Virus record (IMG/VR): IMGVR_UViG_2974513674_000001
Span: 48,226 to 112,225 of that record
Strand: one strand, 5' to 3'
Length of the DNA stretch: 64,000 nt
From: a virus
Taxonomy: Duplodnaviria; Caudoviricetes
Shown one piece after another: positions 18,234 to 59,962 of the stretch (its first letter is position 1; every line of letters begins with the position of its first letter). The translations under genes and the position numbers were made by a program. Below the pieces are notes generated by a model, which was given only the letters and a program-made list of their open reading frames with translations, had not been told where the DNA came from and did not search any database.

Positions 18234-18929
18234 ATGCCTCTAGTTAAGAACCTGGAGGTGGACCCGGACCTCTGCGGCGAGACTTTTCGTCGCAGAGAGT
18301 GGGCACTTCAGAAAGATTACATCCGCAGAATGGAGCTTGGAAAAGAAGTCTCCATTCGCGCAGTGACAATCAAGGGCGCGATGATCATCAAGGCTCTTCG
18401 TGAGGTCAGCGAAGACGAGGTGAACATCAACGATTCAGTCCTCGAAGTCTACGCAGACGCAGAAGACTGGCTCTGCCGCAAGATGAACACCCTGTTTCAA
18501 ACTGTGCGCCACCTGGGTATGAACCCGGTGAGCATGAAGAAGCAGATCGCAGCCATGTATGAGAACGGCAGCAACGTCGATCCACTGATTGCAAACGGCT
18601 GTGATCTTGTCTGGGTGCCGATGTGCGCCCACGTTGTTGGTGACGAGCGTGTGTATCTGTTCCGAGTAGCGGGCAAGAACGTCAAGAAGATCGACAAGAC
18701 CAACTCCGGCGTAATTGGCTACACCCGCGAGTACCTCAACACTGTGACCCCTGAAGTCGCAGCGTACATCGCCAAGTTGGAAAGCAAGGCAATGGACGAC
18801 GAAGAGGTTCGCAACGCCTTCACCCGGCTCGGGTCTGTTCTGCGACCCAAAGCCTACAAAGATGAAATGCTGGCTGAGCGAGCCAAGCAATACGAAAACA
18901 GCAAGACCGACTTTGGAGGTTGGGCATGA
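18234..18929 (+). CDS. hypothetical protein, C-terminal tag DFGGWA
   Basis: GAGG RBS; operon position. Confidence 0.75.
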   Translation: MPLVKNLEVDPDLCGETFRRREWALQKDYIRRMELGKEVSIRAVTIKGAMIIKALREVSEDEVNINDSVLEVYADAEDWLCRKMNTLFQTVRHLGMNPVSMKKQIAAMYENGSNVDPLIANGCDLVWVPMCAHVVGDERVYLFRVAGKNVKKIDKTNSGVIGYTREYLNTVTPEVAAYIAKLESKAMDDEEVRNAFTRLGSVLRPKAYKDEMLAERAKQYENSKTDFGGWA

Positions 18930-19804
18930 TGCGTCAGTTTCTCAACCAGTGGCGAGGCGAGTCCTCGTCGGTCAACACCTTCGTCGCATCCATGCAGAGC
19001 GAACGCTACGCTGATGGCGACGACCATACCCTACTGCCGGCACTCGAACTGTTTCACACCAGCCCGCGTGCCGTCGCTGAGTACCTGTTCACCTACATTG
19101 CAACCGCCCCGCGTGAGCTGACAGACCTGGCCAGCCAGGTTCTCGACGCCAGCAAAGGCGTCGTGCTGACTGAGGAAGAGCAGATCGACCTGAAGGCCCT
19201 GGCTATCTCCTGCAAGGAGCTGGGCGAGCAGATGGATCGCTTCACCAAGAACATGGCATCGGACAAAGCGTGGAGCGCAATCTACAACGCACCGATCAGT
19301 GTGACCCGGGTGTGGCGCACGAAGCGCGGCGAAGAGGTGGTGGGCACCCCTGAAGTGCGCAACGTGCCAATCGACCAGGTTCCCAATCGCTTGTCGAGCC
19401 TGGTACTGGTCGAGGAAGAGTCGAGCAAGGGTGTCACACGTCGCCCAATGCTCAGTGTGTCCGACGGTCGCTATCAGTTGGACGGGTCAATCGGTGAGGT
19501 GCGTGCCGATTTCCTGATCGACATCCCGGCGATGTTTGCACACGGAGCTGATGTCTCCCCACGCGGCCGCATGGGTCGCGGGTGTGGTCAAAAAGGCACC
19601 GAGAGGCTGTTCACCCGCACGATGACAGCAGCGCTCCCACTGTTAGAGGCAACTCTCGCAGTGGCTGAGCCGCTCGTTCGTCGGGGCGTGCTTGAGAGTG
19701 ACCTGTACCAGTTCGACGAAGTGATCGACTACACGCCGGGAGCGAACCCTCTGAAAGCAGAGGACAATCCCAACGCCAAATATGACATTGGAGGATGGGC
19801 ATGA
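18926..19804 (+). CDS. hypothetical protein, C-terminal tag DIGGWA
   Basis: ATGA coupling with GGAGG RBS. Confidence 0.75.
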   Translation: MMRQFLNQWRGESSSVNTFVASMQSERYADGDDHTLLPALELFHTSPRAVAEYLFTYIATAPRELTDLASQVLDASKGVVLTEEEQIDLKALAISCKELGEQMDRFTKNMASDKAWSAIYNAPISVTRVWRTKRGEEVVGTPEVRNVPIDQVPNRLSSLVLVEEESSKGVTRRPMLSVSDGRYQLDGSIGEVRADFLIDIPAMFAHGADVSPRGRMGRGCGQKGTERLFTRTMTAALPLLEATLAVAEPLVRRGVLESDLYQFDEVIDYTPGANPLKAEDNPNAKYDIGGWA

Positions 19805-20331
19805 AAGAAGAATGGCGATTCATCCCTGGCCACTCAAGCTACGAGGTCTCGAACATGGGCCGAGTCCGTTCTCATAAACGGCTCGACAGCCGCGGACAGC
19901 CAAAGCTACTCTCCCTGTCGATGACGGTTGAGAAGCCTACCAAGCCTCGATACTGGAAGGTGGGCCTGAAGCCTGACGTGGGGCAGCGCAGGACGATGGA
20001 AGTACATCGCCTTGTTCTGATCACCTTCGTCGGCCCGCCACCCACGATCAAGCACCAGGGCGCGCACAACGACGGCAACGGCCTCAACAACTGGCTGCCG
20101 AACCTGAAGTGGGCAACGCAAGCAGAGAACGAAGCCGACAAAATCCTGCATGGCACGGTCGCCCAGGGCGCGTCACACGGCAAAGCGGTGCTGACGGAAG
20201 CCCAAGTGCGCCGGATCAAGAAGGTGAAGAAATGGAAGCACGGCATGGTCCGGGCTTTCGCAATCGAGTTCGGGGTCCAAGACTCCGCAATCTCCAAGAT
20301 CAAACTTGGCCAAAGGTGGAATTCACTATGA
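19801..20331 (+). CDS. NUMOD4-HNH homing endonuclease
   Basis: EEWRFIPG..YEVSNMGRVRS (NUMOD4), VHRLV, HNDGNGLNN..NLKW, C-terminal HTH. Confidence 0.88.
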   Translation: MKEEWRFIPGHSSYEVSNMGRVRSHKRLDSRGQPKLLSLSMTVEKPTKPRYWKVGLKPDVGQRRTMEVHRLVLITFVGPPPTIKHQGAHNDGNGLNNWLPNLKWATQAENEADKILHGTVAQGASHGKAVLTEAQVRRIKKVKKWKHGMVRAFAIEFGVQDSAISKIKLGQRWNSL

Positions 20332-20894
20332 GCAAAATCAGAATCATCGGGGTTGACCCGAGCATGAGCAACCTGGGTATCGCGAAGGGTTGGCTTGATC
20401 TTCAGACGCTCAAGTGGGTAGTGGAAGAAGTCGAGCTGACCAAGACCGAGAAGGGCAAGTCCAAGACTGTCCGCAAGTCGAGCGACGACTACGACCGCGC
20501 CCGGTTGCTGTACGAGGCTCTGAGCGAGTCTGAGAAGGGCGCCGAGATTGCGTTCGTCGAAATGCCAATCGGCTCTCAGAGCGCGGCGGCAATGAAGTCC
20601 TACGGCATGTGCATCCAACTGATCGCATCGCTCGACATCCCGGTGATCCAGGTCAGCCCGAACCAGGTCAAGATTCACGCGACCGGCGACCGCATGGCCA
20701 CGAAGGAAGAAATGATCGCGTGGGCATTCAAGAAGTTCCCAGACATCAACTGGTTGCAGCGCGGCGGCAAGCTGACCCTGAACAACGAGCACTTGGCTGA
20801 CGCCATCGGTGCGATCAACGCGGGTGTGGAAGAAGACGACTTCAAGGCTCTGATCGCCATGCTTCGCAAAATGACAGCTAGCTTTACCAAGTAG
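20328..20894 (+). CDS. RuvC-like Holliday junction resolvase
   Basis: IIGVDPS, FVE, ATKEEM, EHLADA acidic motifs. Confidence 0.82.
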   Translation: MSKIRIIGVDPSMSNLGIAKGWLDLQTLKWVVEEVELTKTEKGKSKTVRKSSDDYDRARLLYEALSESEKGAEIAFVEMPIGSQSAAAMKSYGMCIQLIASLDIPVIQVSPNQVKIHATGDRMATKEEMIAWAFKKFPDINWLQRGGKLTLNNEHLADAIGAINAGVEEDDFKALIAMLRKMTASFTK

Positions 20895-20954
20895 CTGCCG
20901 GGTACACTTTCGACCCCTCGATATACAATGGGTTGCGTAGAGCAGCCCATCTAA

Positions 20955-20970
20955 CCACTACATCATGTGT
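20955..20970. promoter_or_regulatory. candidate NrdR box
   Basis: CCACTACATCATGTGT resembles the acaCwAtATaTwGtgt consensus; just upstream of the nrdA RBS. Confidence 0.5.
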
Positions 20971-20982
20971 AAGGACTTAAAC

Positions 20983-23366: not shown

Positions 23367-24275
23367 ATGATCAGCATGTCCGAGAAACTTGTAGAAATCG
23401 AACCGATGTCCGAAGAGCAGTGCTGGGCATCCATCGACCGTGTTGCTGAAGTCATGACCGTACCCGGCATGATGCAGTCCGAGCTGAAAGCTGATTCAGA
23501 CCTGGGCAAGCCGTTCACTGATAACGCCAAGCAAATCCTGCACATCATCGTGGATCACTTCGACGCCGGTGAATCGCCGGATGACGACAAGCTGATCGAC
23601 GGCTTGAACGACCTGTTCATCCAGAACCAGGCGCTGCAAACCAAGTACACCATCAAGCTGCTGACCCAGGCGTCGATTGCGATGCAGCAATTGCCGCTCG
23701 CTGCGATGATCACCAGCATTCAAGACGTCGAATCGAAGGACGGCCTGACCCAAGAAGGTCTGGAAGAACTGAAGGCGATGGAAACCGAAGACAAGAAGTC
23801 CGGCATGGCCAGGATCGAACCTCGTCTGATGAAGATCATGGGCCTGGGTATCGACGCAGCCGGCGGTCAGCTTGAGTTCGCACGCCTTCAGAAGATCGTC
23901 AGCGACAAGATGCCGGAGCACTTCAAGGCCAGCCCTGAAATCGCCTTCACCTCGCAGATGATCGGCGCAATCATGACCGCTGTCACCGCCCGCGCCGAGT
24001 CTCGCGAGTTCACCTTGTCGCAGATTCGTGCGACCATCGAAATGGTGATCGGCGCCAAGCAGGCTCTGACACTGGCCAACATGACTGCGTACCACATGGG
24101 GTCGAAGGAAGTGGTCGGCATCCTGGTTCGCAGCGCAGAGCACCACATCAATATCTCTGTGGATGAAACTGTCGTTGAAGTGCCTGAGAAGCAGAAGGTT
24201 GAGATTGAAGCGACCCACGTTGCCGATCACAAGCCTACTTCGACCCACGTTGCCGGCAACCGGACTGTCAACTGA
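23367..24275 (+). CDS. hypothetical protein
   Basis: 302-aa ORF behind a CC-N8-CC-N13-TATCAT promoter. Confidence 0.8.
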   Translation: MISMSEKLVEIEPMSEEQCWASIDRVAEVMTVPGMMQSELKADSDLGKPFTDNAKQILHIIVDHFDAGESPDDDKLIDGLNDLFIQNQALQTKYTIKLLTQASIAMQQLPLAAMITSIQDVESKDGLTQEGLEELKAMETEDKKSGMARIEPRLMKIMGLGIDAAGGQLEFARLQKIVSDKMPEHFKASPEIAFTSQMIGAIMTAVTARAESREFTLSQIRATIEMVIGAKQALTLANMTAYHMGSKEVVGILVRSAEHHINISVDETVVEVPEKQKVEIEATHVADHKPTSTHVAGNRTVN

Positions 24276-24640
24276 TGAACGCCAAGCAGCGACGTATCGC
24301 TGATAAGGTTCGTCAGCGCGCCTCACTTGACGCTGACGCGAAAGTCCGCGAGCTGGAAGAGAAGCGCCGGCTGTTCGTAGAGGAATGCAGGGCTCAGACT
24401 GCTCAGATCGAAGCGAGCCGTCAGCGCCTTGTTCGTGATCAAGAAGAGAACAAGGAAAGCGCGGTACGCTTCCAGGCTGAAATGGAAGAGGCTCGACTGA
24501 ACTTCGTTCGCCAGTCCATAAGCCTCAAAGATGCGAACGTGGTACGGGAAGTGCTCCTGCTGCTTGAGCTGGATGAAGACCCGGCTGCAATCGCCCTGAA
24601 AATCCGCCAGCAGTTTGGCTTACTGATCCCGGAGTGGTGA
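24275..24640 (+). CDS. coiled-coil protein (C-terminus similar to next gene)
   Basis: EVLLLLELDEDP motif. Confidence 0.7.
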   Translation: MNAKQRRIADKVRQRASLDADAKVRELEEKRRLFVEECRAQTAQIEASRQRLVRDQEENKESAVRFQAEMEEARLNFVRQSISLKDANVVREVLLLLELDEDPAAIALKIRQQFGLLIPEW

Positions 24641-24643
24641 CAG

Positions 24644-25039
24644 ATGGCCTCAATCGACTTTACGACGGTTGAGCAGTACGAAGAGGCTCGCGAGCAAATC
24701 GAGGCTCTTCTGCTGGAGAACCACAGAACCATGAAGCGTGCCGAGCATCTGACGAGCGAGCTGGAGCAGAAAGCAGGCGACCTCAAGGAGTGGCAAGATG
24801 CTCTGGACAAGGAGCAAGATCACTTCTCCATCGAGAAGGAGCGGTTCGAGGCCGATCAACACAAGGTTCTTGAGCTTCAGATGGTGATTCAAAGAGCCGT
24901 TGAGCGTGTGAACGCTGCGAACCAAGACCCGATTGAGGTCATCAACGAGGCACTTCTGCTGCTGGAGCTTGACGAGAGCCCGGAAGAGATTGCCAAACTG
25001 CTTCGCGAGAAGCGTGAAGCCCTAGACGTCAAATGGTGA
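24644..25039 (+). CDS. coiled-coil protein
   Basis: EALLLLELDESP motif. Confidence 0.7.
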   Translation: MASIDFTTVEQYEEAREQIEALLLENHRTMKRAEHLTSELEQKAGDLKEWQDALDKEQDHFSIEKERFEADQHKVLELQMVIQRAVERVNAANQDPIEVINEALLLLELDESPEEIAKLLREKREALDVKW

Positions 25040-25620: not shown

Positions 25621-26637
25621 ATGTCCGTTATCATTACCCCGCAAGAGCGGGCGCTGAAAGTCATCAACAACCGCCGCGTCATCCTGGGCGAAATGGACGA
25701 GCTGATGGCTCCGTCCCCGAAGAAATACTCCCTCCCTCTCGAAATCATGGAGAAGGGCCTGCGCGACGACTGGAAACACTGGCACGTCAACCTCGTCGAC
25801 GACCTGGCTCACTTCCGTGAGTTCGACAAGAAGACCCAGCGCTCTGTTCAGATGAACCTGGGCTTCCTGTCCAACCTCGACGGCATCCAGCTCGGCACCC
25901 TCGCTAACAACATCCAGGCGCACATCACCTGCCCGGAATACCGGATGGCGATCACTCGTCAGGCGATGGAAGAGCTGACCCACGTTCTGACCTACGACCG
26001 CATGATCACCAGCCTCGATATGGACCCTATCGAGACCTACAACCTGTTCATGACGGACGAAGTCCTCGAAATCAAGAACAAGCACATCATCAAGATGGCC
26101 AACCTGTTGGGCAACGACTTCACCGGCGAGAACTTCGTCCGTGCAATCGTCGCCAACCAGGCGCTCGAAGGCGTCTACTTCCAGATCGGCTTCAAGCGGT
26201 TCTACATCCTTCACAAGCGCGGGAAGATGGGTGGCTGCGCCCAGAACATCCGCTACATCCAACGGGACGAAGCGAGCCACCTTCGCCTGTTCAACGCAAT
26301 GTGGCATGACGTCCGTCGTGAGAACCCGGAGTTGTTCACCCCTGAAGTCCTGAAGGACTGCGGTGAGATTCTCCGCGTGGCTGGTGAAATGGAAATGACC
26401 TGGAACCGCCATGTGAACCAGGGCGGTCAGTTGGGCATCACCGACGAAATCAGTGACGGCAGCATCATGTTTGGCACCAACGGCGTTGCCCGAGCAGTGG
26501 GCCTCCCAACGCCATTCCCTCATGTGACCAAAGACCCTCTCGCCTGGACCGACGCCTACCTCAATGAGCACGGCATCGAAACCAACTTCTTCGAGCAACG
26601 TGTGGTTGAATACGAAGACAAGGGCCTTGAGTGGTAA
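25621..26637 (+). CDS. nrdB: ribonucleotide reductase beta subunit
   Basis: di-iron ligands LDG, EELTH...Y, EG, DEASH; C-terminal NFFE..V.EY. Confidence 0.92.
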   Translation: MSVIITPQERALKVINNRRVILGEMDELMAPSPKKYSLPLEIMEKGLRDDWKHWHVNLVDDLAHFREFDKKTQRSVQMNLGFLSNLDGIQLGTLANNIQAHITCPEYRMAITRQAMEELTHVLTYDRMITSLDMDPIETYNLFMTDEVLEIKNKHIIKMANLLGNDFTGENFVRAIVANQALEGVYFQIGFKRFYILHKRGKMGGCAQNIRYIQRDEASHLRLFNAMWHDVRRENPELFTPEVLKDCGEILRVAGEMEMTWNRHVNQGGQLGITDEISDGSIMFGTNGVARAVGLPTPFPHVTKDPLAWTDAYLNEHGIETNFFEQRVVEYEDKGLEW

Positions 26638-27290: not shown

Positions 27291-28268
27291 ATGAACCAAC
27301 ACGACAGCTTGTACCTTCAAACTTGCCAGGGCCTTCTGGAATACGGGCGCCCGAGCAGTGACCGCACTGGCACCGGCACGACGAAAGCGCCGGGTCTGAA
27401 CATGCGGTTCTTCATGCAGGACGGCTTCCCTCTGCTGACCAGCAAATTCACCGGGATGCGTCTGATCGAGCTGGAACTGCGCGCATTCCTGAACGGCATC
27501 ACCGACAACAACTTCCTGAGCAGCCAGAACGTCCACATCTGGGATGCGTTCGCCAACGAGAAGGGCGAGCTGGGTCCGATCTATGGCGCAATGTGGCGCA
27601 ACTGGCCTGTCATGTGTCAGAGCGGCGAAAGCTATGAGGTCGATCAGATCGCCGAGCTGATGAAAGGCTTGCGTGAGAAGCCAATGAGCCGTCGTCACAT
27701 CGTCACTGGCTGGAACCCGGCTCTTCTGCCTGTCGAGGGGCGCAGTCACGCTGAAAACGTCAACGCCGGCCTCCAGGCGCTGCCACCGTGTCACACCATG
27801 TGGCAGGTCCACTGCCATGAACTGACAGTGGAAGAGCGGGAAGAGCAGCACAAGCTCCGCAACGGCAGCGTTTTGCTGGGCAGCAAGACCGAGAGCTTCC
27901 GGCACCAGGTTCTGGATCGCCTCGAAGTGCCTAAGTACGGTGTCAGCCTGCAACTGTTCCAGCGCAGCGCCGATATGTTCCTGGGCGTGCCGTTCAACAT
28001 CGCGTCGTACAGCCTGCTGTTGCACTACATCGCCCACAGCCTGAACATGGTGCCGCACAGCTTCATCTGGAACGGCGGCGACTGCCACATCTACAACAAC
28101 CACGTCGAGCAGATGAACCTTCAGATCAGCCGTGAGAAGGATGCGCCGCCGAGCCCGCAAATCCGCTTCAAGTGCGCACCCAAAGACATCTGGGACTACA
28201 CGGCAGACGACTTTGAAATCGTCGGCTACGAACACATGGGCAAAATCCAGGGGGATGTGGCTGTATGA
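27291..28268 (+). CDS. thyA: thymidylate synthase
   Basis: DRTGTGT, LPPCH, QRSADMFLGVPFN, GDCHIY. Confidence 0.95.
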   Translation: MNQHDSLYLQTCQGLLEYGRPSSDRTGTGTTKAPGLNMRFFMQDGFPLLTSKFTGMRLIELELRAFLNGITDNNFLSSQNVHIWDAFANEKGELGPIYGAMWRNWPVMCQSGESYEVDQIAELMKGLREKPMSRRHIVTGWNPALLPVEGRSHAENVNAGLQALPPCHTMWQVHCHELTVEEREEQHKLRNGSVLLGSKTESFRHQVLDRLEVPKYGVSLQLFQRSADMFLGVPFNIASYSLLLHYIAHSLNMVPHSFIWNGGDCHIYNNHVEQMNLQISREKDAPPSPQIRFKCAPKDIWDYTADDFEIVGYEHMGKIQGDVAV

Positions 28269-29107
28269 GCATTCGCAAGCGGCAAATCGCAATCTCGTTG
28301 AACCACAACGGCGTCATTGGCGTAGACGACAAGCTCCTGTTCTCCGCGCCCGCTGACCTGTCCAAGTTCGCCAAGTTCACCGACGGCACGTCGATCATCG
28401 CCGGCCGCGTCACCGCCCAGCAGATGGTCAACTGCGGTATGCGGATCAAGAACCGGCGCCCTCTGATCGTCATCACCGAGACGGGTATCATCGAAGGCAC
28501 CTGTGATCAGGACGACAAGTGGATCTACTACGTCAAAAACCTGCAAGATGCGCTGATCCAAGCAGAAGTGCTGTGCCTGGACCTGAGACTGAACGGCTAC
28601 ACCGTCGCCGGCGGCAAGCGGGTATACGACGACTACCTGAATCTGGTCGACTCGGGGAAAGTGCGCCCCAACGCTGCGTACCTGTTCTCGCACAAAATGG
28701 ACCCGATGGTCCCGGCAGTGGCCCTGAGCCGTGACTTTGCGCAGGTGAGAAAGCTGCTCGAAGTCCGCATGGCGCAGCCAAGATACGTGTGGCACGAAGC
28801 AGACGTGGTCGGCACAGACTTCAACGGCAAGCGGGTGCGCGCAATCGAGGGCAATTTCGGCTACCTCTACGACAACCGTGAGGTCGATCCGTATGAAGTG
28901 AAGATGGTCGAAAGCCATGCCCGAGTAGAAACCGACGGTGGCGAGGTCAGCATCGACCTCTTCAGAATCACTGGCTGGGCTCGCAAAACGGAAATCAAGT
29001 CTGTCGAGATTCACACTCTCGGCGGGAAGACAATTACCGTGCGTCCACGCAGTGCTGCCGGGTTGAATTCCCTACTTTTCGCGCTCAACATGACAGCGTT
29101 CGCTTAA
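28265..29107 (+). CDS. divergent dihydrofolate reductase-like protein with C-terminal extension
   Basis: NGVIG..DKL, DLSKF, GRVT, NRR, VAGG...Y; coupled to thyA. Confidence 0.65.
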   Translation: MSIRKRQIAISLNHNGVIGVDDKLLFSAPADLSKFAKFTDGTSIIAGRVTAQQMVNCGMRIKNRRPLIVITETGIIEGTCDQDDKWIYYVKNLQDALIQAEVLCLDLRLNGYTVAGGKRVYDDYLNLVDSGKVRPNAAYLFSHKMDPMVPAVALSRDFAQVRKLLEVRMAQPRYVWHEADVVGTDFNGKRVRAIEGNFGYLYDNREVDPYEVKMVESHARVETDGGEVSIDLFRITGWARKTEIKSVEIHTLGGKTITVRPRSAAGLNSLLFALNMTAFA

Positions 29108-31802: not shown

Positions 31803-31999
31803 TCACGTTCCTCACAGCAATCGTCGCCTTCATGATCGGTCACGGTATCGGCTGGAGCCGGGCTCACTTGACGGTAGCGACAGAGTGCCAGCGCCTGGGC
31901 AAGTTCTTCGTCAAGAAGGACGTTTATCACTGCACGAAGGTGGAGTGGGCTCACCCGGAACCTGAGAAAGAAAAGGAAGAGCGCACCTATGGCAATTGA
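31799..31999 (+). CDS. small membrane-anchored protein
   Basis: ATGA coupling; hydrophobic N-terminus. Confidence 0.6.
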   Translation: MITFLTAIVAFMIGHGIGWSRAHLTVATECQRLGKFFVKKDVYHCTKVEWAHPEPEKEKEERTYGN

Positions 32000-32405
32000 A
32001 ATCAAGATCGACGATGCGGTCATCCAGAAGCTGGCCGACGACGCTGTTCAGCGCGCAGTGAAGTCCACCGTCGAGAACTCGTCCGTGATCAAGCAGGCTG
32101 TCGAGAAGGCAATCGCCGGCGTCAAGATCGACACCAAGCAGATCGAGGACGCAGTGGTTCAGTCCATCAAGAACGTCACCAGCAGCCCGGCGTTCCTCGA
32201 CGATCTGATCCGTCAAGCGATCATGAAAGGCGCACCCAAGCTCACCGGGTCGTTCGATGCGTCCCTCAGAGCGGCTGGGAAGCGCATGGCGCTCGATCCC
32301 GAAACCCTGGAGCAACTGATCGAGGGTGTGAAGCACAAACTGACCGCCGAAGCTGAAGAGCGTCGTGCGGAAATGGAAATCAAAGGTATGGGGGCATTCG
32401 CATGA
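31989..32405 (+). CDS. hypothetical protein, C-terminal tag GMGAFA
   Basis: helical repeats; typical codon usage. Confidence 0.7.
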   Translation: MAIEIKIDDAVIQKLADDAVQRAVKSTVENSSVIKQAVEKAIAGVKIDTKQIEDAVVQSIKNVTSSPAFLDDLIRQAIMKGAPKLTGSFDASLRAAGKRMALDPETLEQLIEGVKHKLTAEAEERRAEMEIKGMGAFA

Positions 32406-34419: not shown

Positions 34420-34911
34420 ATGGCTGATATTTATCAGAACATCGACGGGACCAGCATCGGGTCGAAGACCTGGGCCGAGAAGAAGGACTCGCCGGAGTGG
34501 ACTCTGAAGGAGTACCGCAACGACAAAATCTGGGTGCGCCTGCACTGGATCGGCCGCTATCGCAAAGACCTGCCGGCTGAGTACCGTCATTCGCACGGCA
34601 TCCAGGTCTACAACCGCTTGATCGTCAAGAAGACCGAGTGGGAAGAAGAGACCCTGGAAGATAAAGGCTGGGTGCTCGATCCGGCTGCGACCCAGACCTT
34701 CCGCACCAAGTCTGCTGCTGAAGCTGCATACGAAGACATGCTCCTGCGCTACACCGCATCGAGCCTGGAAATGGATGAAGACGGTGAAATGACCTTCGTC
34801 GAAGTGGACAACCAGCTCGCACCGGTGGTGCCAGGTTCGTCGCTGATCCTCGATGAAGAACAGGTCGCACGCGCTGCTGAGAAAGGCATCGACGCCGGGG
34901 GCTGGTCTTGA
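34420..34911 (+). CDS. hypothetical protein, C-terminal tag DAGGWS
   Basis: own CC-type promoter at 34349-34379. Confidence 0.72.
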   Translation: MADIYQNIDGTSIGSKTWAEKKDSPEWTLKEYRNDKIWVRLHWIGRYRKDLPAEYRHSHGIQVYNRLIVKKTEWEEETLEDKGWVLDPAATQTFRTKSAAEAAYEDMLLRYTASSLEMDEDGEMTFVEVDNQLAPVVPGSSLILDEEQVARAAEKGIDAGGWS

Positions 34912-36508: not shown

Positions 36509-36721
36509 ATGGGCAAGCTGGATGCGTGCAATCTGGATGTGTACAAGCACGGCGAGAGCATGGGCCTGTACGACATGCCAAAAGACGAAGCCGAAAAGCT
36601 CTGTGAGCGGCTGACCAAAGAAACTGGCCGTCTTCACGACTGGCACTACATCGGCGGCCGGGTGCATGTGAAAGCTCTGCCAAAAGACTTCAAGCCTGAA
36701 ACAGTGAGTGACTGGGCATGA
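36509..36721 (+). CDS. hypothetical protein (ends SDWA)
   Basis: GGAG RBS. Confidence 0.6.
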   Translation: MGKLDACNLDVYKHGESMGLYDMPKDEAEKLCERLTKETGRLHDWHYIGGRVHVKALPKDFKPETVSDWA

Positions 36722-37423: not shown

Positions 37424-37529
37424 AGCGAATCGCTCTTAAACGAGCGCACAGAGCGTCCAACAGAGCTGAGTGGGCGCCAAGTAGTGCCACTCAGCAGTCT
37501 GTAGAATTGCAGACTTGAAGGAGAGTTTT

Positions 37530-37811
37530 ATGCGGAAGAGCAGACAACCCGGCTTCGACAAGATGCTCGAAGCCAAGCGTGAAAACGCCAAGAACATCAT
37601 GAGCCAGTTCACCCAGAACTGCGACGGGTGCAGCGTCGTCAGCAGCAAGGCGAAGCTGTTCGACCTGGAAGAAGGCCGCTTCTGCCTGAAGTGCCTCCCG
37701 GATGGCATGACTGGCATCGAAGCGCTCGAAGCCCACACTGAGCGTCAGGCTCGCTTGCAAGAGCAGCGCGACAACCCGGTGCGGCCGGAAGACTTCGGTG
37801 GCTGGTCATGA
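37530..37811 (+). CDS. zinc-finger protein, C-terminal tag RPEDFGGWS
   Basis: CDGC...CLKC; AAGGAG RBS. Confidence 0.7.
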   Translation: MRKSRQPGFDKMLEAKRENAKNIMSQFTQNCDGCSVVSSKAKLFDLEEGRFCLKCLPDGMTGIEALEAHTERQARLQEQRDNPVRPEDFGGWS

Positions 37812-38092
37812 ACCAGAACATGAAGGACTTCTTCTACGGGATTCCCGTCTACAAGCAGCACCGAATGGACGACGAGGATGACCTCGAAGCCGAGACCATC
37901 AAGGCCGAGAACAGCGCCATCAAGCGCGCCCTGGCTATGGCTATCGAGCAGCGAACTCGTCACCGTGACGGGAAAGTTGAATCTGTTCGCCGTCAGATCG
38001 AGCAGGCTGAACTTGACGCCATCGCTGCCGACTTCGAGGCCGAAGAGCGCAAGAAGAGGCTTGAGAAGATGGGCGCCGGGAGCTGGGCATGA
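37808..38092 (+). CDS. hypothetical protein, C-terminal tag GAGSWA
   Basis: ATGA coupling. Confidence 0.68.
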   Translation: MNQNMKDFFYGIPVYKQHRMDDEDDLEAETIKAENSAIKRALAMAIEQRTRHRDGKVESVRRQIEQAELDAIAADFEAEERKKRLEKMGAGSWA

Positions 38093-40088: not shown

Positions 40089-40312
40089 TCTGGCTCCATC
40101 GACTGCGCAATCTGCCGATGCTCCTGGTCCTGCACCTGAAGCACAGCAACCAGTTCATGAAAGTGGAGGACGCCCAGCTCGATCTGTATGCAGCCTGCAC
40201 GTCGATGCCGGGTGAAATCGAGATTCATGCTCAACTGACCCGGACTCTCGAAGCGGAACTTGAAACGATGGCTGACATCGACGAGCGGATCGAGAAGCTA
40301 TGGCACCGTTGA
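40085..40312 (+). CDS. hypothetical protein
   Basis: ATGA coupling. Confidence 0.55.
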   Translation: MIWLHRLRNLPMLLVLHLKHSNQFMKVEDAQLDLYAACTSMPGEIEIHAQLTRTLEAELETMADIDERIEKLWHR

Positions 40313-40491
40313 AGTTTGAAGAAAGGCTCAAGCAGGTCTGCATCGCCGAAATGATGCAGCTCCTGGTTGTGCGAGCAGACCAGCTTCGTCGCGCTGACGA
40401 GATTCGCCAGCGTGAGGAAGATGAACTTGAAGAAGCCATACAAACTGAATGGCAAATCGAAACTCAAAAACTGATGGGAGGTTGGGCATGA
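40300..40491 (+). CDS. hypothetical protein, C-terminal tag LMGGWA
   Basis: fills gap between coupled genes. Confidence 0.6.
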   Translation: MAPLKFEERLKQVCIAEMMQLLVVRADQLRRADEIRQREEDELEEAIQTEWQIETQKLMGGWA

Positions 40492-44895: not shown

Positions 44896-45288
44896 ATGGC
44901 CACATTGACCGGCAAGCTGATCGCAAAAGCCCAACGTGCAATCGTGGCCTACTACCACCTCTGCACCGATCATGACGACTGGGGCACCCTGGATGAGCAC
45001 TGGCTTCAGGTTCTCGCTGAGAGCCCGGCACCAGGCTACTTGAACAGGTACTTCGTCCGAGTCAAGAACACCAGACGCTTCGAGCACCAGAAGAACGCTC
45101 TGAGCGACATCGACCGCAGCAGAGGCATCATGTGCGTCACCTTTCTGCATGGGTCGATCACACCTGACACCGGGTGGTACATCAAGCCGAGTGGTCGCCA
45201 TGCAAACCCACTCGAAAACTATCAACATAGAGACGCGCAAGAAGAGATTGCGACCAACAGACCAGAGAATTTCGGGAGCTGGGCATGA
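44896..45288 (+). CDS. hypothetical protein, C-terminal tag RPENFGSWA
   Basis: GAGG RBS. Confidence 0.68.
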   Translation: MATLTGKLIAKAQRAIVAYYHLCTDHDDWGTLDEHWLQVLAESPAPGYLNRYFVRVKNTRRFEHQKNALSDIDRSRGIMCVTFLHGSITPDTGWYIKPSGRHANPLENYQHRDAQEEIATNRPENFGSWA

Positions 45289-45701
45289 GTGGTATGAACA
45301 CCGAGCAGTGCAAAGAGCTGATCATGAAGGTGATGAACGAGCTGATCACCAAAGTTGGTCTGAACGCAATGGCCGTCTACCGCCAGGAGACTGGCAGCTC
45401 GCTTCAAGATGTGCTCGACACCAAGAAGTGGAAACGCACGCGCAAGTGGGGATCGGCCGGCAACGTCAGCCGTGAGTTCTCGCACATGGGCTTCAGGGCC
45501 ACCGTCGTGCTGCGTGAGGTGATAAACACAGACGGCACGCTCAGTGTCGAGATTGAAATGGGTGAGCTGCCGAAACCTCTGCAAGAGGCAACGAAAGACC
45601 TGAAAGACCTTGACCTGCCGGGCGATCAGACCGCGCGGCGCGTAGACAAACCATCAATGACAGAGGGGCCGAAGCCAGAAGGTTTCGGGGCATTCGCATG
45701 A
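45285..45701 (+). CDS. hypothetical protein, C-terminal tag KPEGFGAFA
   Basis: ATGA coupling. Confidence 0.68.
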   Translation: MSGMNTEQCKELIMKVMNELITKVGLNAMAVYRQETGSSLQDVLDTKKWKRTRKWGSAGNVSREFSHMGFRATVVLREVINTDGTLSVEIEMGELPKPLQEATKDLKDLDLPGDQTARRVDKPSMTEGPKPEGFGAFA

Positions 45702-49969: not shown

Positions 49970-50347
49970 ATGAGCACGAACCCGGATCAACTGCGGAGCT
50001 TGGCCACGATCAGCAGCTTGGCGATCAGCCTGCAAAAGCAGAATCTCAGCGACATCCAGATGGACCTGCTTGAAGTGGCTGTCCACCTGATGACCAACAT
50101 CGCGGTTCAATCGACACTGCACGGCCGAGAAGGCTTGAGCCCCGCAGAGCCGGTAGCCCCACTTGACTTCGTACACGGCGAGCCCGTTGATGTCGAAATC
50201 AAAGAGACCCGCGTTTCACACGCCTACTGGCAGCGCACCACGATTGTGGGCAAGATCACTGACGAGAAAGGCGTCTCTGTGTACCGCACAGCGCGCACCA
50301 AAGACGCCTGGATGGAAGACAGCCAGCTCAGAAAGGTGAAGCAGTGA
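49970..50347 (+). CDS. hypothetical protein
   Basis: GAGGG RBS; promoter at 49867-49898. Confidence 0.6.
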   Translation: MSTNPDQLRSLATISSLAISLQKQNLSDIQMDLLEVAVHLMTNIAVQSTLHGREGLSPAEPVAPLDFVHGEPVDVEIKETRVSHAYWQRTTIVGKITDEKGVSVYRTARTKDAWMEDSQLRKVKQ

Positions 50348-50856
50348 ACCGCTACAAAGGCGTCTTCAAGATCACCTTCAGCTCAGTCCTGGCCAAGCAC
50401 GGCTGGGACTTGGCATACGATCTTGACGGGTACATGAAGACCATCGACAGGCCCAACGTACCGCGTCTGCTGCCGCATATCAGGCTCAACAAGGAAGGTC
50501 ACCCGGCTACCGCTCAAGACGACACCGGGCGCAAGAAGGAGAAGACCCTCGCAAGCCTCTACGTGCCTGAAATGAACCGAGTGGTCAAAGCCGTCTACGA
50601 CCCCAGCTATGAAGACCCGGACTACAGGTACAGGCTCATGGTCTACGAGTTCGGGGTGAACGCCACATCAGACACCAACATCCTTGAAAGCGACACCTAC
50701 GGCGGCCTGTACTACCTGCTCCTGGCATTCTGCGAATACTGGGTGAACAACGATCACCTGGACTGCACAGAGTACCTGGAGGTTCACGTAGCAGCCCGGC
50801 CGGTGAAGGAGGTCTCGGAAGCCTACAGGGACAAGGGTTACGGTCTCTTTGGCTGA
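50344..50856 (+). CDS. hypothetical protein, C-terminal tag GYGLFG
   Basis: GTGA coupling. Confidence 0.65.
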   Translation: MNRYKGVFKITFSSVLAKHGWDLAYDLDGYMKTIDRPNVPRLLPHIRLNKEGHPATAQDDTGRKKEKTLASLYVPEMNRVVKAVYDPSYEDPDYRYRLMVYEFGVNATSDTNILESDTYGGLYYLLLAFCEYWVNNDHLDCTEYLEVHVAARPVKEVSEAYRDKGYGLFG

Positions 50857-51404: not shown

Positions 51405-51755
51405 ATGCGCAAGAAGAAGCCAGCTCCAACCCCAACTGATCCAGGTATCTGGGCAGACCCGGAACCCAGGTTCAAGCCCGATCCCAGTCCCAAAACCGTG
51501 AACGTGACGGTCAATTTCACCGACATCCCACCAAACCCGGAATTCGACAAAGCGTTTGCAGGGATACTCAGAAGCCAGGTAATCGGCCAACTTGCAAGAG
51601 ACCCCGGCAAGAGCAAACTGGTAAACACACCAGGTGGCATCGCCCTGAAATCAAAGTCCCTAAGCCCAGAAGAACACATGGAGTTCATCAGAGGCATGAT
51701 GAAGACAGCCCAGCAAGAGATTCACCGTACAGGAGGTAGCACCAGTGACGAGTAA
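51405..51755 (+). CDS. hypothetical protein
   Basis: ORF in an A-rich region. Confidence 0.5.
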   Translation: MRKKKPAPTPTDPGIWADPEPRFKPDPSPKTVNVTVNFTDIPPNPEFDKAFAGILRSQVIGQLARDPGKSKLVNTPGGIALKSKSLSPEEHMEFIRGMMKTAQQEIHRTGGSTSDE

Positions 51756-52011
51756 CCAGATTCTCCAGGGCAACACCCCTGAATACGAAGCCTACATAGA
51801 GACGGCTTACGCAAGACACCTAGAGAACCAGGCAATGCACCTAGCAGGAATCAAAGGCCGATACCACCACCTGAATCTCGACTGGACACCCGAAATCGAA
51901 AAGGAAGCCATGAGAAGGGACGGAGGTGGAATCACCGCTTACCTGAGAAAAATCTCAGAGGACCAAGCACAAGCCAGAAGAGAAAGACTGGAAGCATGGG
52001 GAACCTGGTAG
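51745..52011 (+). CDS. hypothetical protein (ends AWGTW)
   Basis: AGGAGG RBS. Confidence 0.55.
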   Translation: MTSNQILQGNTPEYEAYIETAYARHLENQAMHLAGIKGRYHHLNLDWTPEIEKEAMRRDGGGITAYLRKISEDQAQARRERLEAWGTW

Positions 52012-52387
52012 ATGGTCAAGTCCAGATTCAGCAAGAACCGAAACCTCGAAACCCGTACAGGTCTGTGGCGCAAGAAAATCAGGTATCTCAAGCAATGGCG
52101 AGAAGCTCAGAAGAATTTCAGGATCAAGCAGAACCAGAAGACAAACCCTCAGTACGGAATCTGGTAGAGAAACCCGGAGAGACGTACCAGAGCATAGGCA
52201 CACACCCATAGAGATACACAGAGGGGAGAGCACCATAGAGACATAACCCCATAAGAGAAACCCGGAGAGAGGTGTAGAGAGTCAGAGACACCTAACCGTA
52301 AGGACACAGTGTAAGAAGAACCGTGTTGTGTGTAATCGGCTCATCGTCTCTATAGCCAGCCCAGAATTATTCTTACACCGCAGGAAC

Positions 52388-56788: not shown

Positions 56789-56798
56789 GTCACATTGA

Positions 56799-57436: not shown

Positions 57437-57440
57437 CCTC

Positions 57441-58416: not shown

Positions 58417-58661
58417 TGAAAGGCAACGAGGAAATAGGCAACACGATAGCGGCGACCCTGAGTAACCAGGCGCTGCTGGACAAGATGGTCGACTTTGAGC
58501 TGGACGCGATCAAGACAGGGGCGGCGCTGATGACCGACTGCTATCGCGATCCAGACGACGAGACCAAGTGGCGTAACAAGAAGATGCACGCGCTGTTCAG
58601 ACTTTGGCAGGCCGGTGCCCGGTATGGCCAAGACAAACTGCAAACCACAAAAGGGAAGTGA
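58413..58661 (+). CDS. hypothetical protein
   Basis: coupled to upstream gene. Confidence 0.58.
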   Translation: MMKGNEEIGNTIAATLSNQALLDKMVDFELDAIKTGAALMTDCYRDPDDETKWRNKKMHALFRLWQAGARYGQDKLQTTKGK

Positions 58662-58664
58662 CCC

Positions 58665-58880
58665 ATGAACCAACAAGAGAACGCACGCCGGCTGCAAGCG
58701 CTGTTTGAGCACTGCGCCAGGAACGTGATCAAGAGCACGCCGCTGCCGGCGAACTTCGACCGCAACGAAGACGGCACCTTCAAGTCGCCCATCACTGAAG
58801 ACCTCTACGCCTTGTGGCTGTCGGGTCATGGCCAGGGCGTTGCAGACCACGCAGTAGCACGCGGAGACGTTGAGCTATGA
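58665..58880 (+). CDS. hypothetical protein
   Basis: packed operon. Confidence 0.58.
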   Translation: MNQQENARRLQALFEHCARNVIKSTPLPANFDRNEDGTFKSPITEDLYALWLSGHGQGVADHAVARGDVEL

Positions 58881-59152
58881 GACTGTCGGAACTGAAAGCT
58901 CTGGTCGACAAGGCCAGCGAGCGAATGGCCAAGCACCGCGAAGACCCGGAAGTCGCAATGTACTTCCTGGAGAACGGCCCAGGCGAGCAGCGTCACCACA
59001 TTCTCCACGTCGAGCTGGCTGACCTGAACAGCGTGAGCAACATCGAAGCCAATTCGATGGACCTGATGTGCAGTCATGAGCTGACGATGGACATCCCCAT
59101 GCGCACCATGTTCGTTCTGACCGACGACGCTGACGCGGAGATTTTCAACTGA
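58877..59152 (+). CDS. hypothetical protein
   Basis: GGAG RBS; ATGA coupling. Confidence 0.6.
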   Translation: MRLSELKALVDKASERMAKHREDPEVAMYFLENGPGEQRHHILHVELADLNSVSNIEANSMDLMCSHELTMDIPMRTMFVLTDDADAEIFN

Positions 59153-59640
59153 TGGTACAAATCATGATTCCGCCCCTGGGCACCGTTATCAAACTGACCG
59201 AAGACTGGCATTTCAGCCTGTACGACGAGAGCCGCAACGAGAAGCTCCAGAAACAGTGCGGTCTTCTGCCGCCATTCCGTGACGGCGAGGGTCTGTATGA
59301 ATGGCGTCGTTTGAGCCTGGCTGAGCGCCGGAAGCGAATCGACGAATCTGTCTGGACGCATGTGCCCTACGGTCATTCAACCGACCTCTGGGGCGGTGAG
59401 TGGCATACCCCGTTCGTGTTGCGCGCCGAAACCAGGCTGAAGATCGACCGCATCTACATTCGCCAGGGTCAGGGTGACTTCGACAGCGTGACCTTCCGAA
59501 GCGACTGCTGGATGTCGAATCTGGGCGATCCCCTGTTCACCAAGAAGTACGTCAACGGCCGCAAGGTGCCTAGCATTCGTTTTTGGGCTAAGCTGGCCGA
59601 CGTCAACAGAATCGAAGGGGTATTTGTGAATGACCGATGA
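59152..59640 (+). CDS. hypothetical protein
   Basis: IDRIYIRQG..DFDSVTF...RFWAKL. Confidence 0.65.
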   Translation: MVQIMIPPLGTVIKLTEDWHFSLYDESRNEKLQKQCGLLPPFRDGEGLYEWRRLSLAERRKRIDESVWTHVPYGHSTDLWGGEWHTPFVLRAETRLKIDRIYIRQGQGDFDSVTFRSDCWMSNLGDPLFTKKYVNGRKVPSIRFWAKLADVNRIEGVFVNDR

Positions 59641-59962
59641 AGATGGCAACCCAGTAGACCCGGAAGAAGGGATCAAGCAGTTGGCCGACGTGGTGATCGA
59701 GTGGCACGCCAGCAGGCATCGCCAGATCGACGAGATTCTCGCCAGCGAGAGCAAGAAGGGGATCAAGGTCACGAACACCGACGACGATTCCGAAATCATC
59801 ATCGAAGGCGACAAGCTCGCAGGCTTCAGAGCCGGGTTGCACGTCGCTAAGATGATTCTGGGCAAGCTACCGTTCTCTCTGGAAGACCCCTGCGACGACG
59901 CGGATGAAGACGAGCCAGAACCTGAGCCGATTCGGCCCGCAGACTTCGGCCACTTCTCGTAA
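59630..59962 (+). CDS. hypothetical protein, C-terminal tag RPADFGHFS
   Basis: last gene before terminator at 59972-60012. Confidence 0.65.
   Translation: MTDEDGNPVDPEEGIKQLADVVIEWHASRHRQIDEILASESKKGIKVTNTDDDSEIIIEGDKLAGFRAGLHVAKMILGKLPFSLEDPCDDADEDEPEPEPIRPADFGHFS

Follow-up and report, generated by a model that had tools for sequence, protein, structure and literature searches.

Why do so many otherwise unrelated proteins of one phage end in nearly the same short peptide? The window analyzed here, the right 64 kb of the 112,225-bp genome of a Nickievirus-like Pseudomonas phage, raised this question in an initial annotation that listed full and partial copies of such a C-terminus, and all of these (12/12 full and 3/3 partial) translate as quoted and end at the reported stops. 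In a gene call that covered the complete genome and yielded about 152 genes, the pattern G-x-[WF]-[ASG]-stop forms the C-terminus of 13 of the ~152 proteins, roughly 1 protein in 12, against 0.09 expected (Poisson P = 5e-24), an expectation derived from the 20 internal copies of the pattern in 32,950 positions of the same proteome. Requiring a hydrophobic residue before the pattern leaves 12 C-termini against 0.02 expected. Twelve of the 13 tagged proteins are those listed initially, and the 13th, ending in GWGAFG, lies just left of the window. The enrichment check that the annotation had proposed for related phages gave the same picture in phage hairong, where 14 of 163 proteins are tagged (P 3e-22). 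These counts confirm that the shared C-terminal tag is real and extends beyond the 64-kb window. We found no paper describing it in the literature.

A terminal tag on unrelated proteins

All of the genes given here with coordinates lie on the plus strand. The first tagged gene, at 18234–18929 (231 aa, ending KTDFGGWA), lies directly 3′ of sbcC, and its neighbor at 18926–19804 (292 aa, KYDIGGWA) has a hairong ortholog that ends in EIGSWS despite 27% identity. Further carriers are encoded at 31989–32405 (138 aa, KGMGAFA) and at 34420–34911 (163 aa, IDAGGWS), the latter with its stop within a TTGA overlap, followed by 37515–37811 (98 aa, RPEDFGGWS), 37808–38092 (94 aa, KMGAGSWA), and 38089–38487 (132 aa, RPAAFGTWA), which has a TAA stop and no overlapping gene. 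Orthologs of this last protein end in ESFGSWA or EAFGTWA, with differing codons for F, G, and x. The tail of the protein at 40300–40491 (63 aa, KLMGGWA) is retained in phages phiK7B1 and ZY21, in which the junction reads TAATG rather than ATGA. Next come 44896–45288 (130 aa, RPENFGSWA), 45285–45701 (138 aa, KPEGFGAFA), and 50344–50856 (170 aa, KGYGLFG), which again lacks an overlapping gene and whose hairong homolog, 33% identical over 91 aligned residues, ends in EGFGKWA. The last, 59630–59962 (110 aa, RPADFGHFS), has a TAA stop without overlap, and its body matches the PHROG for Mu Gam-like end protection (phrog_15896, E 4e-44); because the match is confined to residues 1–99, the profile does not reach the tail.

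Partial or shortened tails occur as well. A 51-aa protein at 52012–52167 (PQYGIW) terminates in the aromatic residue itself, as the outgroup versions described below do, and its hairong homologs end in PEWGTW and PIAGTW. An 88-aa open reading frame at 51745–52011 that the gene finder missed ends in EAWGTW, one of the partial matches first noted; WGTW is also the tail of a protein encoded after sbcC in E. coli phage Cyrano. Another partial tag, without the Gly, ends the 70-aa protein at 36509–36721 (KPETVSDWA), whose hairong ortholog ends in PESPWA.

Outside their tails, the carriers showed no similarity to one another in an all-against-all BLASTP comparison, with one weak exception: 38089–38487 and 59630–59962 match at E 1.5e-4 (30% over 103 residues) with composition correction off, and this match is probably compositional. 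None of the carriers matched a Pfam family, and PHROG matches were found for two, the Gam-like protein and 34420–34911, whose sole family match, phrog_5241, is of unknown function. Many of the carriers are small, have no known function, and are encoded in the window's accessory-gene region; those that may bind DNA ends or breaks are Gam-like and WGR-like. DnaE, ligase, RNR, ThyA, the RecA-like protein, and SbcCD are all untagged, in agreement with the earlier observation that core enzymes lack the tag.

Selection on the peptide

At nine of the 12 window copies, the stop lies in ATGA or TTGA and shares bases with a potential start of the following gene, and in six of these nine, GGAG or GGGA is correctly spaced to serve as the next gene's Shine-Dalgarno site; the stops at 38487, 50856, and 59962 have no overlap, as originally described. 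The tail might then be a nucleotide by-product, either a Shine-Dalgarno sequence with an ATGA overlap or a cassette-recombination junction that happens to be read in frame. We examined codon use in 68 distinct Nickievirus tails, of which ortholog tails are not independent data points. The invariant Gly is encoded by GGG in 18, GGT in 18, GGA in 17, and GGC in 15, and the Ala, Ser, and stop codons also vary. GGA or GGG accounts for 32 of 49 Gly codons at overlapping junctions, as such a by-product would predict, compared with 3 of 19 elsewhere and a genome background of 15% (Fisher P 3e-4, a significance that is overstated because ortholog tails are not independent). Since only the codon choice shifts, and only at overlapping junctions, the Shine-Dalgarno site is overlaid on a peptide motif, which bears out the suggestion that some copies double as ribosome-binding sites.

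A nucleotide origin as the sole explanation is contradicted by the remaining evidence, and we regard it as extremely improbable. About 50 junctions of the same kind in the genome carry no tag, and 19 of the 68 distinct tails keep the peptide without an overlapping gene, using ordinary GGC or GGT codons. Synonymous sites vary freely, the outcome by which the initial annotation would have distinguished a peptide from a pure DNA or RNA motif. Outgroup versions end in W-TAA, W-TGA, or W-TAG, never in ATGA, and a ribosome-binding site has no use for the conserved upstream Pro and aromatic residues or for the Trp codon in its spacer.

The protein alignments point the same way. In the family of 18234–18929 (alignment A2; 17 representatives, 22–51% identity), tail residues belong to a small set of invariant columns, with Y220, G228, and W230 invariant and F227 nearly so, and in a second family (alignment A1; 33–88% identity), they are again among the few invariant columns, here after a hypervariable linker. 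Between orthologs of the window and hairong, identity is 69% in the tail compared with 46–47% in the linker and the rest of the protein. The linkers before the tag are enriched 2.3-fold each in Pro and Glu. In AF2 models, the tails are coil and their pLDDT is below 50–63; the model of 18234–18929 has an overall pLDDT of 89, and its final 8 residues are coil of low confidence. Selection thus acts on the peptide and not only on the junction, as had been proposed: codons are free, the tail outlasts the diverged body of the protein, and it is disordered, strictly terminal, and uniform within a lineage.

Lineage versions and a proposed common reader

The tag predates the genus, and its form is specific to each lineage. 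Xanthomonas and Stenotrophomonas phages carry P-E-x-Y-G-x-W-stop, Rhizobium phages P-N-F-G-R-F-stop, and SSU5-type phage-plasmids W-[A/G]-T-W-stop. In the Stenotrophomonas phage ANB28, about 9–10 proteins have a Y-G-x-W end, and Trp is the C-terminal residue of 12 proteins against 2.2 expected; the Xanthomonas phage JGB6 has 5 Y-G-x-W ends plus 2 G-x-W ends. On IMG/VR contigs L054 and L055, 8 consecutive small genes all end in x-Y-G-x-W. RHEph10 has at least 5 proteins with an F-G-[RM]-F end, and W-[AG]-T-W ends occur in SSU5, pJN2-26, and Cyrano. The Nickievirus tag has one additional small residue after the aromatic one, so the terminus would not be read identically in all lineages. In Nickievirus, SSU5, and RHEph10, tagged genes occupy two matching positions, one following sbcC and the other separating primase from ligase, and the proteins encoded at the latter position in hairong and RHEph10 are homologous (phmmer E 1e-5), each with its own lineage's tail. 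These syntenic carriers are not universal, since ANB28 has no tagged gene either beside sbcC or between primase and ligase.

The explanation that we favor, with moderate confidence, is that the tail is a docking motif that tethers unrelated clients to a single reader, which co-evolves with it and is probably encoded by the phage. Two side chains, aromatic or hydrophobic, flanking an invariant small residue, nearly always Gly, would be presented at the free C-terminus or one residue from it, after a flexible Pro/Glu/Lys-rich linker, often as P-x-x-aromatic-G-x-aromatic. One reader common to many unrelated clients, and co-evolving with the tag, would account for a version that is uniform within a phage and different between lineages. 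Such a reader would most likely be encoded by the phage and conserved across the ~110-kb DnaE-UDG phage group. We infer the single reader, its identity, and the effect of docking from these patterns. The earlier proposal of a signal for one common receptor thus stands in part: selection on the peptide passed each of the tests applied and one common reader is likely, whereas the link then drawn to HbYX motifs and an Ntn protease is not supported.

Lineage versions could also track a diverging host protein. A host hub such as the beta clamp, a replication or repair factor, RNA polymerase, or a chaperone could read the tag, with versions following host orthologs, and we consider this a minor possibility. 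Tag version does track host group (Pseudomonas, Xanthomonadaceae, Rhizobium, enterobacteria), many carriers are small accessory proteins, and bacterial hubs do read terminal aromatic peptides, among them clamp-binding motifs and SSB tails. Clamp-binding tails (T4 gp43, gp55, and gp33 on gp45; bacterial Q-L-[S/D]-L-F) are likewise short, mostly terminal hydrophobic or aromatic peptides; they are flexible, common to unrelated proteins, and read by one hub, and phage-specific versions exist. The tag differs from them in lacking the leading Gln, in its variable fourth position, and in its invariant Gly, and the phage DnaE has its own, separate canonical clamp-type motif, Q-x-E-L-[LM], which is conserved where it would be expected in every lineage and is dissimilar to the tag. 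No phage clamp gene was recognized among the proteins searched. Pattern scans of IMG/VR placed the tag almost exclusively within this phage group, the few singletons on other contigs not being tag-enriched, and the candidate hubs are highly conserved in gamma-proteobacteria, making such distinct versions less expected.

The tail might instead direct its carriers into the capsid, to be injected along with the DNA, a role that we judge very unlikely. Packaging would explain a short terminal peptide on unrelated small proteins, including the Gam-like and WGR-like carriers, and PHROG matches identify a scaffolding protein and an HK97-type major head protein. The T4 capsid-targeting sequence and encapsulin cargo-loading peptides similarly address unrelated proteins to one compartment through a short portable peptide, but the T4 signal is N-terminal and cleaved off, the encapsulin consensus differs from the tag, and there is no sign that tag carriers are virion proteins; we found no virion proteome for this phage group in the literature. 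Carrier genes map to the replication and accessory regions and are absent from the head module, and the major head protein, one of the best-conserved proteins, is 53–61% identical to outgroups, a poor fit to the strong drift of the tag.

Candidate readers

If the reader is a phage protein, a first candidate is the CobT-like VWA protein at 1678–3840 (Pfam CobT_C/VWA), with its partner, a MoxR/CobS-like AAA+ ATPase (AAA_5) at 3931–5157. MIDAS sites bind extended or unstructured peptides, and MoxR-vWA pairs work on client proteins (PMC7159879). The MIDAS motif of the phage protein, D-C-S-G-S, is intact; it would bind the terminal carboxylate of the tag, neighboring pockets would accommodate the aromatic side chains, and the ATPase would remodel docked clients or set them free. 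The pair resembles midasin, RavA-ViaA, and vWA-MoxR systems (PMC7159879) in joining an intact MIDAS to an AAA_5 partner, here within the replication block, and the strictly terminal tag offers the free carboxylate through which a MIDAS can bind an extended peptide. Homologs of both genes occur in 4/4 outgroup genomes compared, as do about 30 other shared genes that co-occur equally well, and the proposed link draws on this co-occurrence in one phage group together with the general property of MIDAS sites. Known examples of MIDAS ligands present an Asp/Glu side chain or one particular C-terminus and, unlike the tag, have no aromatic-Gly-x-aromatic tail.

The phage SbcCD nuclease (sbcD/sbcC-like, Mre11/Rad50-like genes at 15204–18226, assigned from relatives' annotation and synteny) is a second candidate, suggested by the tagged gene directly 3′ of sbcC in Nickievirus and SSU5-type phages. 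In Nbs1, a cofactor of the Mre11/Rad50 nuclease, the near-terminal motif N-F-K-x-F-x-K docks on the Mre11 dimer (PMC7260605), and its two Phe residues three positions apart after Asn recall the N-F-G-R-F of Rhizobium phages. The Nbs1 motif, however, is eukaryotic, internal, and Lys-dependent, and the loops to which it binds are not known from bacterial SbcD. The likeness is a resemblance only, and more than 10 further carriers have no visible link to SbcCD.

The HslV-family Ntn peptidase at 61282–61809 (phrog_1040, E 1e-32), which starts M-T-T, had been connected to the tag through the HbYX motif. The HbYX motif of proteasome activators and the C-terminal tail by which HslU docks on HslV are also terminal peptides with a penultimate aromatic residue that dock in pockets of a peptidase ring, and Nickievirus does encode an HslV-family peptidase. 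The tag carriers, though, are small unrelated proteins rather than ring ATPases, and the aromatic residue of the tag is Trp or Phe, not Tyr, and is the last residue in three lineages. By phmmer, the peptidase occurs in Nickievirus genomes only, plus one weak match in RHEph10 (E 0.003), and no HslV homolog was detectable in ANB28, JGB6, or the SSU5-type phages. Because these relatives keep the tag without the protease, the link is unsupported, and the peptidase does not appear to be a general partner of the tag.

A broader version of this idea would make the tail a degron, with a protease (the host's ClpXP, Lon, or FtsH, or the phage peptidase in the case of Nickievirus) reading the exposed aromatic C-terminus and clearing all tagged proteins on one shared timetable. 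Proteases classically recognize tails that are terminal, disordered, and apolar, as in ssrA and FtsH substrates, and the C-terminal tail of HslU activates HslV. We nevertheless consider a degron unlikely: the tag matches neither LAA-type nor HbYX-type signals, the tagged relatives lack detectable HslV, and carriers conserved in the replication/recombination block across lineages better fit a stable assembly signal.

Under the docking reading, the clients would comprise two conserved members of the replication/recombination block, the Gam-like protein, and many small accessory proteins. At stops that overlap the next gene, the Gly codons also help to form that gene's Shine-Dalgarno site. The tag looks like an old address label on unrelated phage proteins.

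A terminal tag on unrelated proteins

The window covers bases 48226-112225 of a 112,225-bp genome and shares about 77% DNA identity with the Pseudomonas syringae Nickievirus phages phiK7B1, ZY21 and Nican01; its DnaE and that of the Nickievirus phage hairong share 75% identity. Almost every gene is on the plus strand. On its left side, the window carries a replication and recombination block encoding DnaE fused to a UDG domain (5771-9163), an ATP-dependent ligase, a gp32-like SSB, a 5'-3' exonuclease, a RecA-like protein, SbcD and SbcC, RNR and thymidylate synthase, and a CobT-like VWA protein with an AAA_5 MoxR-like ATPase, and the remainder holds mainly small genes without assigned function.

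Using a gene call trained on plus-strand genes known from relatives, we obtained about 152 genes for the whole genome, 13 of whose products (the carriers) end in G-x-[WF]-[ASG] immediately before the stop codon (the tag). The same pattern occurs internally 20 times in 32,950 positions, giving an expectation of 0.09 terminal copies (P = 5e-24); with a hydrophobic residue ahead of the motif there are 12 terminal copies vs 0.02 expected, and the longer form [RK]-P-x-x-[FL]-G-x-[WF]-[ASG] has five terminal copies and zero internal ones. The tag is strictly terminal, with internal copies at background frequency, and the P values far outstrip any correction for the post hoc definition of the motif. 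All 15 C-termini quoted in the initial annotation translate as written and end at the stops assigned to them, and the thirteenth carrier, a 257-aa protein ending GWGAFG, is encoded just left of the window (genome 46773-47546), between primase and ligase. The product of 28265-29107, a dihydrofolate reductase by relatives' annotation, has a tag-like end that lacks the Gly (..NMTAFA); this mimicry is probably chance, since the hairong ortholog ends in ..IILNER, unlike the tag.

All-against-all BLASTP of the carriers found no similarity outside the tails, except for a weak and probably compositional match between 38089-38487 and 59630-59962. No Pfam family was found for any carrier searched, and comparison of ten carriers with Pfam and PHROG gave a single match, to a family of unknown function, for 34420-34911. 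Residues 1-99 of 59630-59962 match a PHROG named Mu Gam-like end protection, the tail lying outside the profile, and a homolog search with this carrier returned close relatives only. Foldseek gave no significant match for the AlphaFold2 models of two carriers, 18234-18929 and the 257-aa protein. In VIA-align, the weak top rows for 18234-18929 were all Rad50/SMC heads (Z 4.1-4.6, too weak to call yet of note because the gene directly follows sbcC), and the 257-aa protein gave weak WGR-domain rows within residues 47-145 (2ra8, Z 4.3; PARP1, Z 3.5; PARP3, Z 3.0), with residues 52-122 aligned to WGR domains and the 2ra8 alignment covering 62 residues at 1.8 Å rmsd and 23% identity. This domain is beta-rich and its family retains a W-G-K motif; because of the WGR resemblance and this motif, the 257-aa protein, encoded near the ligase gene, may bind DNA breaks. 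Joined with the Gam-like carrier, the WGR-like and Rad50/SMC leads hint that the conserved carriers may have to do with DNA ends or breaks; most of the small ones offer no such clue.

Orthologs in phiK7B1, ZY21 and Nican01 are also tagged (12-14 per 50-kb locus), as are proteins on two IMG/VR contigs of the same group (five tags per 10 kb) and 14 of the 163 proteins of hairong (P = 3e-22). Between the window and hairong, the tail persists with body identity down to 25-43%; over nine ortholog pairs taken together, the last five residues are 69% identical, the preceding 20 are 46% identical and the rest 47%. A search with 18234-18929 against 1.84 billion representative proteins returned 18 matches at E up to 0.001, and the alignment of its family (A2; sixteen proteins of similar length, 22-51% identical) has 12 invariant columns, among them Y220, G228 and W230 of the tail, with F227 nearly invariant. 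In the family of the 257-aa protein (A1; 18 members, 33-88% identical), the ending ..D-R-E-E-V-Y-G-x-G-W-G-A-F-G is the best conserved part of the C-terminal half and follows a hypervariable linker. Pro and Glu are each 2.3-fold enriched in the 20 residues ahead of the tags, where Leu, Phe, Trp and Cys are scarce, and the AlphaFold2 models for families A2 and A1 (overall pLDDT 89 and 85) render the tail as coil with pLDDT below 50-63. The tag is thus a short, disordered terminal peptide under purifying selection, more conserved than its flanks and present on unrelated proteins, as in docking short linear motifs. Because tail conservation, the Pro/Glu-rich linker and modeled disorder combine, we read the tag, by its properties, as a putative short linear motif on a flexible tail.

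We also observed a second terminal pattern, at RNR beta, which ends in ..KGLEW, and at two small proteins just upstream, which end in ..LIPEW and ..LDVKW (window 24275-24640, 24644-25039 and 25621-26637); the hairong counterparts end in ..LEPKW, ..LDAKW and ..KALEW. RNR beta tails dock on the alpha subunit, and this docking site might be shared, or competed for, by the two small proteins.

A peptide motif with a ribosome-binding overlay

The initial annotation had cautioned that some copies of the tag double as a ribosome-binding site and gene overlap, a caveat that we found justified: 9 of the 12 window copies have ATGA or TTGA at the stop, and six of these nine contain GGAG or GGGA correctly spaced as a Shine-Dalgarno site for the next gene. 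As a whole explanation, however, a nucleotide signal is ruled out. In a set of 68 tails that differ at the DNA level, drawn from seven Nickievirus genomes or contigs, all four codons occur for the invariant Gly (GGG 18, GGT 18, GGA 17, GGC 15), the last residue is encoded by GCA, GCT, TCA, TCT, TCC, TCG, AGC or GGC, and the stop is TGA or TAA. Junctions are of the ATGA, TTGA, GTGA, TAATG or non-overlapping type, with 19 of the 68 tails having no overlap, and about 50 comparable junctions in the window genome have no tag. The tag therefore displays neither the synonymous-site conservation nor the overlap dependence of pure Shine-Dalgarno/ATGA coupling, and the earlier claim of selection on the peptide holds up, as codons vary freely and tails with no overlapping gene retain the tag.

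The overlap does influence codon choice. GGA or GGG encodes the Gly in 32 of 49 overlapping tails vs 3 of 19 non-overlapping ones (Fisher P = 3e-4, in a test that treats ortholog tails as data points although they are not independent); genome-wide, these two codons make up 15% of Gly codons. The Gly is therefore kept with or without an overlap and only its codon is tuned to the ribosome-binding site, so that a nucleotide overlay sits upon a peptide motif. The locus is a clear case of dual coding, in which the peptide motif is preserved and codon choice builds the ribosome-binding site of the next gene.

Lineage versions of the tag

Selecting distant relatives by the fused DnaE-UDG polymerase (35-43% DnaE identity, genomes of about 105-120 kb), we found Rhizobium phages (RHEph10 and others), Stenotrophomonas phages (ANB28), Xanthomonas phage JGB6 and enterobacterial SSU5-type phage-plasmids, and compared five whole genomes, hairong and the four outgroups ANB28, JGB6, RHEph10 and SSU5. 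The strict Nickievirus pattern was not found in any of the four outgroup genomes. In ANB28, the ending [P/Q]-E-x-Y-G-x-W, in which Trp is the last residue, is found on about 9-10 proteins, six of them encoded by consecutive small genes, and W is last in 12 proteins vs 2.2 expected. On two ANB28-related IMG/VR contigs, eight consecutive overlapping small genes (61-136 aa) all encode proteins ending x-Y-G-x-W-stop (L054:289-2635, minus strand; L055:4007-6353). At least five JGB6 proteins end in Y-G-x-W and at least two more in G-x-W, counts that are lower bounds because many conserved genes look split in its record (OQ436456.1), with DnaE in four pieces, which suggests frameshift errors in the assembly. 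At least five RHEph10 proteins end in P-[NMR]-F-G-[RM]-F. Two SSU5 proteins end in W-A-T-W; the tail of SSU5_076, which is encoded after sbcC, persists in homologs from Klebsiella phage pJN2-26 (W-A-T-W; 62% identical overall) and E. coli phage Cyrano (W-G-T-W; 48%). A loose pattern, hydrophobic-[GA]-x-[WF] followed by one small residue or none, is overrepresented in all genomes tested (P between 9e-15, for the window genome, and 7e-3, for SSU5). Outgroup tails end in W-TAA, W-TGA or W-TAG, and ATGA junctions therefore play no part there.

The positions of tagged genes are shared as well. The gene immediately after sbcC is tagged in Nickievirus and SSU5, and RHEph10 has a tagged gene a few genes downstream of sbcC, just before ruvC. 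The primase-ligase interval holds a tagged gene in Nickievirus, SSU5 and RHEph10, and the hairong and RHEph10 carriers at this position are homologous (phmmer E = 1e-5), each with the tail of its own lineage; HMMs for A1 and A2 turned up no homologs in ANB28, JGB6, RHEph10 or SSU5, whereas the single-sequence phmmer search from hairong did match RHEph10. The tag is uniform within a genome and different between lineages, and these comparisons indicate that it predates the genus. Pattern scans of IMG/VR placed it almost exclusively in this phage group; two tail-spike-like proteins on unrelated contigs end in RPAGFGTWA, which looks like chance.

Known motifs and candidate readers

The initial annotation had likened the tag to the proteasome-docking HbYX motif and connected it with an Ntn protease at 61282. 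The protease is genuine: 61282-61809 encodes an HslV-family peptidase (phrog_1040, E = 1e-32) with the N-terminus M-T-T. The connection itself is not supported. HbYX has hydrophobic-Tyr-any as its last three residues, whereas the penultimate residue of the 68 Nickievirus tails is W in 43, F in 25 and Y in none, and in the ANB28, JGB6, RHEph10 and SSU5 tags the aromatic residue is the very last. Nor does a peptidase ring (20S or HslV-like) co-occur with the tag, as the phmmer matches to the HslV-family protein were in the window genome and in hairong, plus a weak one in RHEph10 (E 0.003), and none was in ANB28, JGB6 or SSU5, all of which bear tags. We therefore do not regard this peptidase as a general docking partner.

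Nor does the tag match the bacterial beta-clamp-binding motif. The clamp-binding consensus is Q-L-[S/D]-L-F or Q-L-x-L-x-L, whereas the tag has no Gln ahead of its first aromatic residue and, in place of the hydrophobic fourth residue, has G, A, S, K, T, H, E or R between the Gly and the last aromatic. DnaE-UDG has a separate stretch that looks canonical for clamp binding and is unlike the tag, R-D-Q-x-E-L-[LM]-P-G (residues about 915-930, containing Q-x-E-L-[LM] and flanked by the HhH and fused UDG domains), which is kept in Nickievirus, RHEph10 and ANB28 and slightly diverged in SSU5. Near residue 920, it lies at the position of the internal clamp-binding motif of E. coli alpha. This clamp-type motif points to use of the host clamp by the phage polymerase. 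Pfam, PHROG and Atlas searches of the conserved replication proteins found no phage sliding clamp that could read a T4-type clamp-binding tail, although a divergent one could escape them, and the 426-aa protein downstream of DnaE, tested as a clamp, gained no support.

Other terminal signals also differ from the tag. An SSB-type tail is a stretch of acidic residues with a hydrophobic or aromatic residue last and belongs to the SSB itself; the tags lack such acidic stretches and occur on many proteins, and the gp32-like SSB of the phage ends in an acidic tail of its own (..LDELDDLLED). If the tag were a degron, its carriers would be marked for proteolysis, which is unlikely: an ssrA/ClpX C-motif-1 degron is Leu-Ala-Ala-like, whereas Nickievirus tails close with x-[WF]-[ASG] and tails elsewhere with G-x-W or G-R-F. 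A capsid-loading signal is less probable still, to the point of being very doubtful. The head module encodes a terminase, portal, scaffolding protein and major head protein, no prohead protease that might read the tag was seen there, and the literature yielded no virion proteome for this phage group. Papers on these phages and the motif literature contain no description of the tag.

A single terminal peptide read by one hub is a well-known general principle, and we infer that the tag would dock all carriers on one reader, a protein that binds the tag and co-evolves with it. This reader is more likely phage-encoded than a host protein, because the IMG/VR scans place the tag almost only in this group and because version drift is easier to account for with phage proteins at 30-40% identity than with conserved host hubs. 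That a host hub protein serves as the reader is accordingly a rather doubtful alternative, as conserved host proteins fit the drift less easily.

On plausibility and co-occurrence, we rank the CobT-like VWA protein, together with its AAA_5 partner, first among candidates for a phage-encoded reader. Both sit within the replication block and have homologs in all four outgroup genomes compared, although about 30 other shared genes co-occur equally well. The VWA protein (1678-3840; Pfam VWA/CobT_C) has an intact MIDAS motif (consensus D-x-S-x-S with Thr and Asp further along), with D-C-S-G-S and a later S-D-G; it also has a mid-protein low-complexity insert of roughly 150 residues, rich in Gly, Asp and Glu, and contains no H-E-x-x-H zinc-protease motif. 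MIDAS sites bind extended or unstructured peptides, and MoxR-vWA pairs such as midasin and RavA-ViaA act on client proteins (PMC7159879). The terminal position of the tag would supply a carboxylate to coordinate the MIDAS metal. We tentatively propose, as a possibility and not the probable case, that the SSU5/Nickievirus/RHEph10 phages of about 110 kb and phage-plasmids run a private addressing system, in which the tag would be caught at the MIDAS of the CobT-like VWA protein and clients would be loaded, remodeled or stripped by the MoxR-type ATPase. Outside the group, homologs of the ATPase are essentially cyanophage CobS, which leaves no independent lineages in which to test this idea.

SbcCD is a second candidate reader, because the gene right after sbcC is tagged in Nickievirus and SSU5-type genomes and because N-F-G-R-F of the Rhizobium phages resembles, as a resemblance only, the N-F-K-x-F-x-K motif by which Nbs1 docks on Mre11 (PMC7260605).

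As far as we can tell, neither the motif nor its age, lineage versions or fixed positions within the replication block have been described before. Among the group that bears it are SSU5-type phage-plasmids from Salmonella, Klebsiella and E. coli as well as biocontrol phages infecting Pseudomonas syringae, and the group's replication and recombination blocks hold conserved genes without an assigned role, the CobS/CobT-like ATPase-VWA pair among them. The tag joins a dozen function-less proteins per genome into one functional class, with the peptide as bait for the reader and the lineage-specific versions as a natural co-evolution experiment for finding it. If the proposed addressing system is true, the long unexplained cobS/cobT-like pair of phages would act in tag-directed handling of client proteins during phage DNA replication and recombination.
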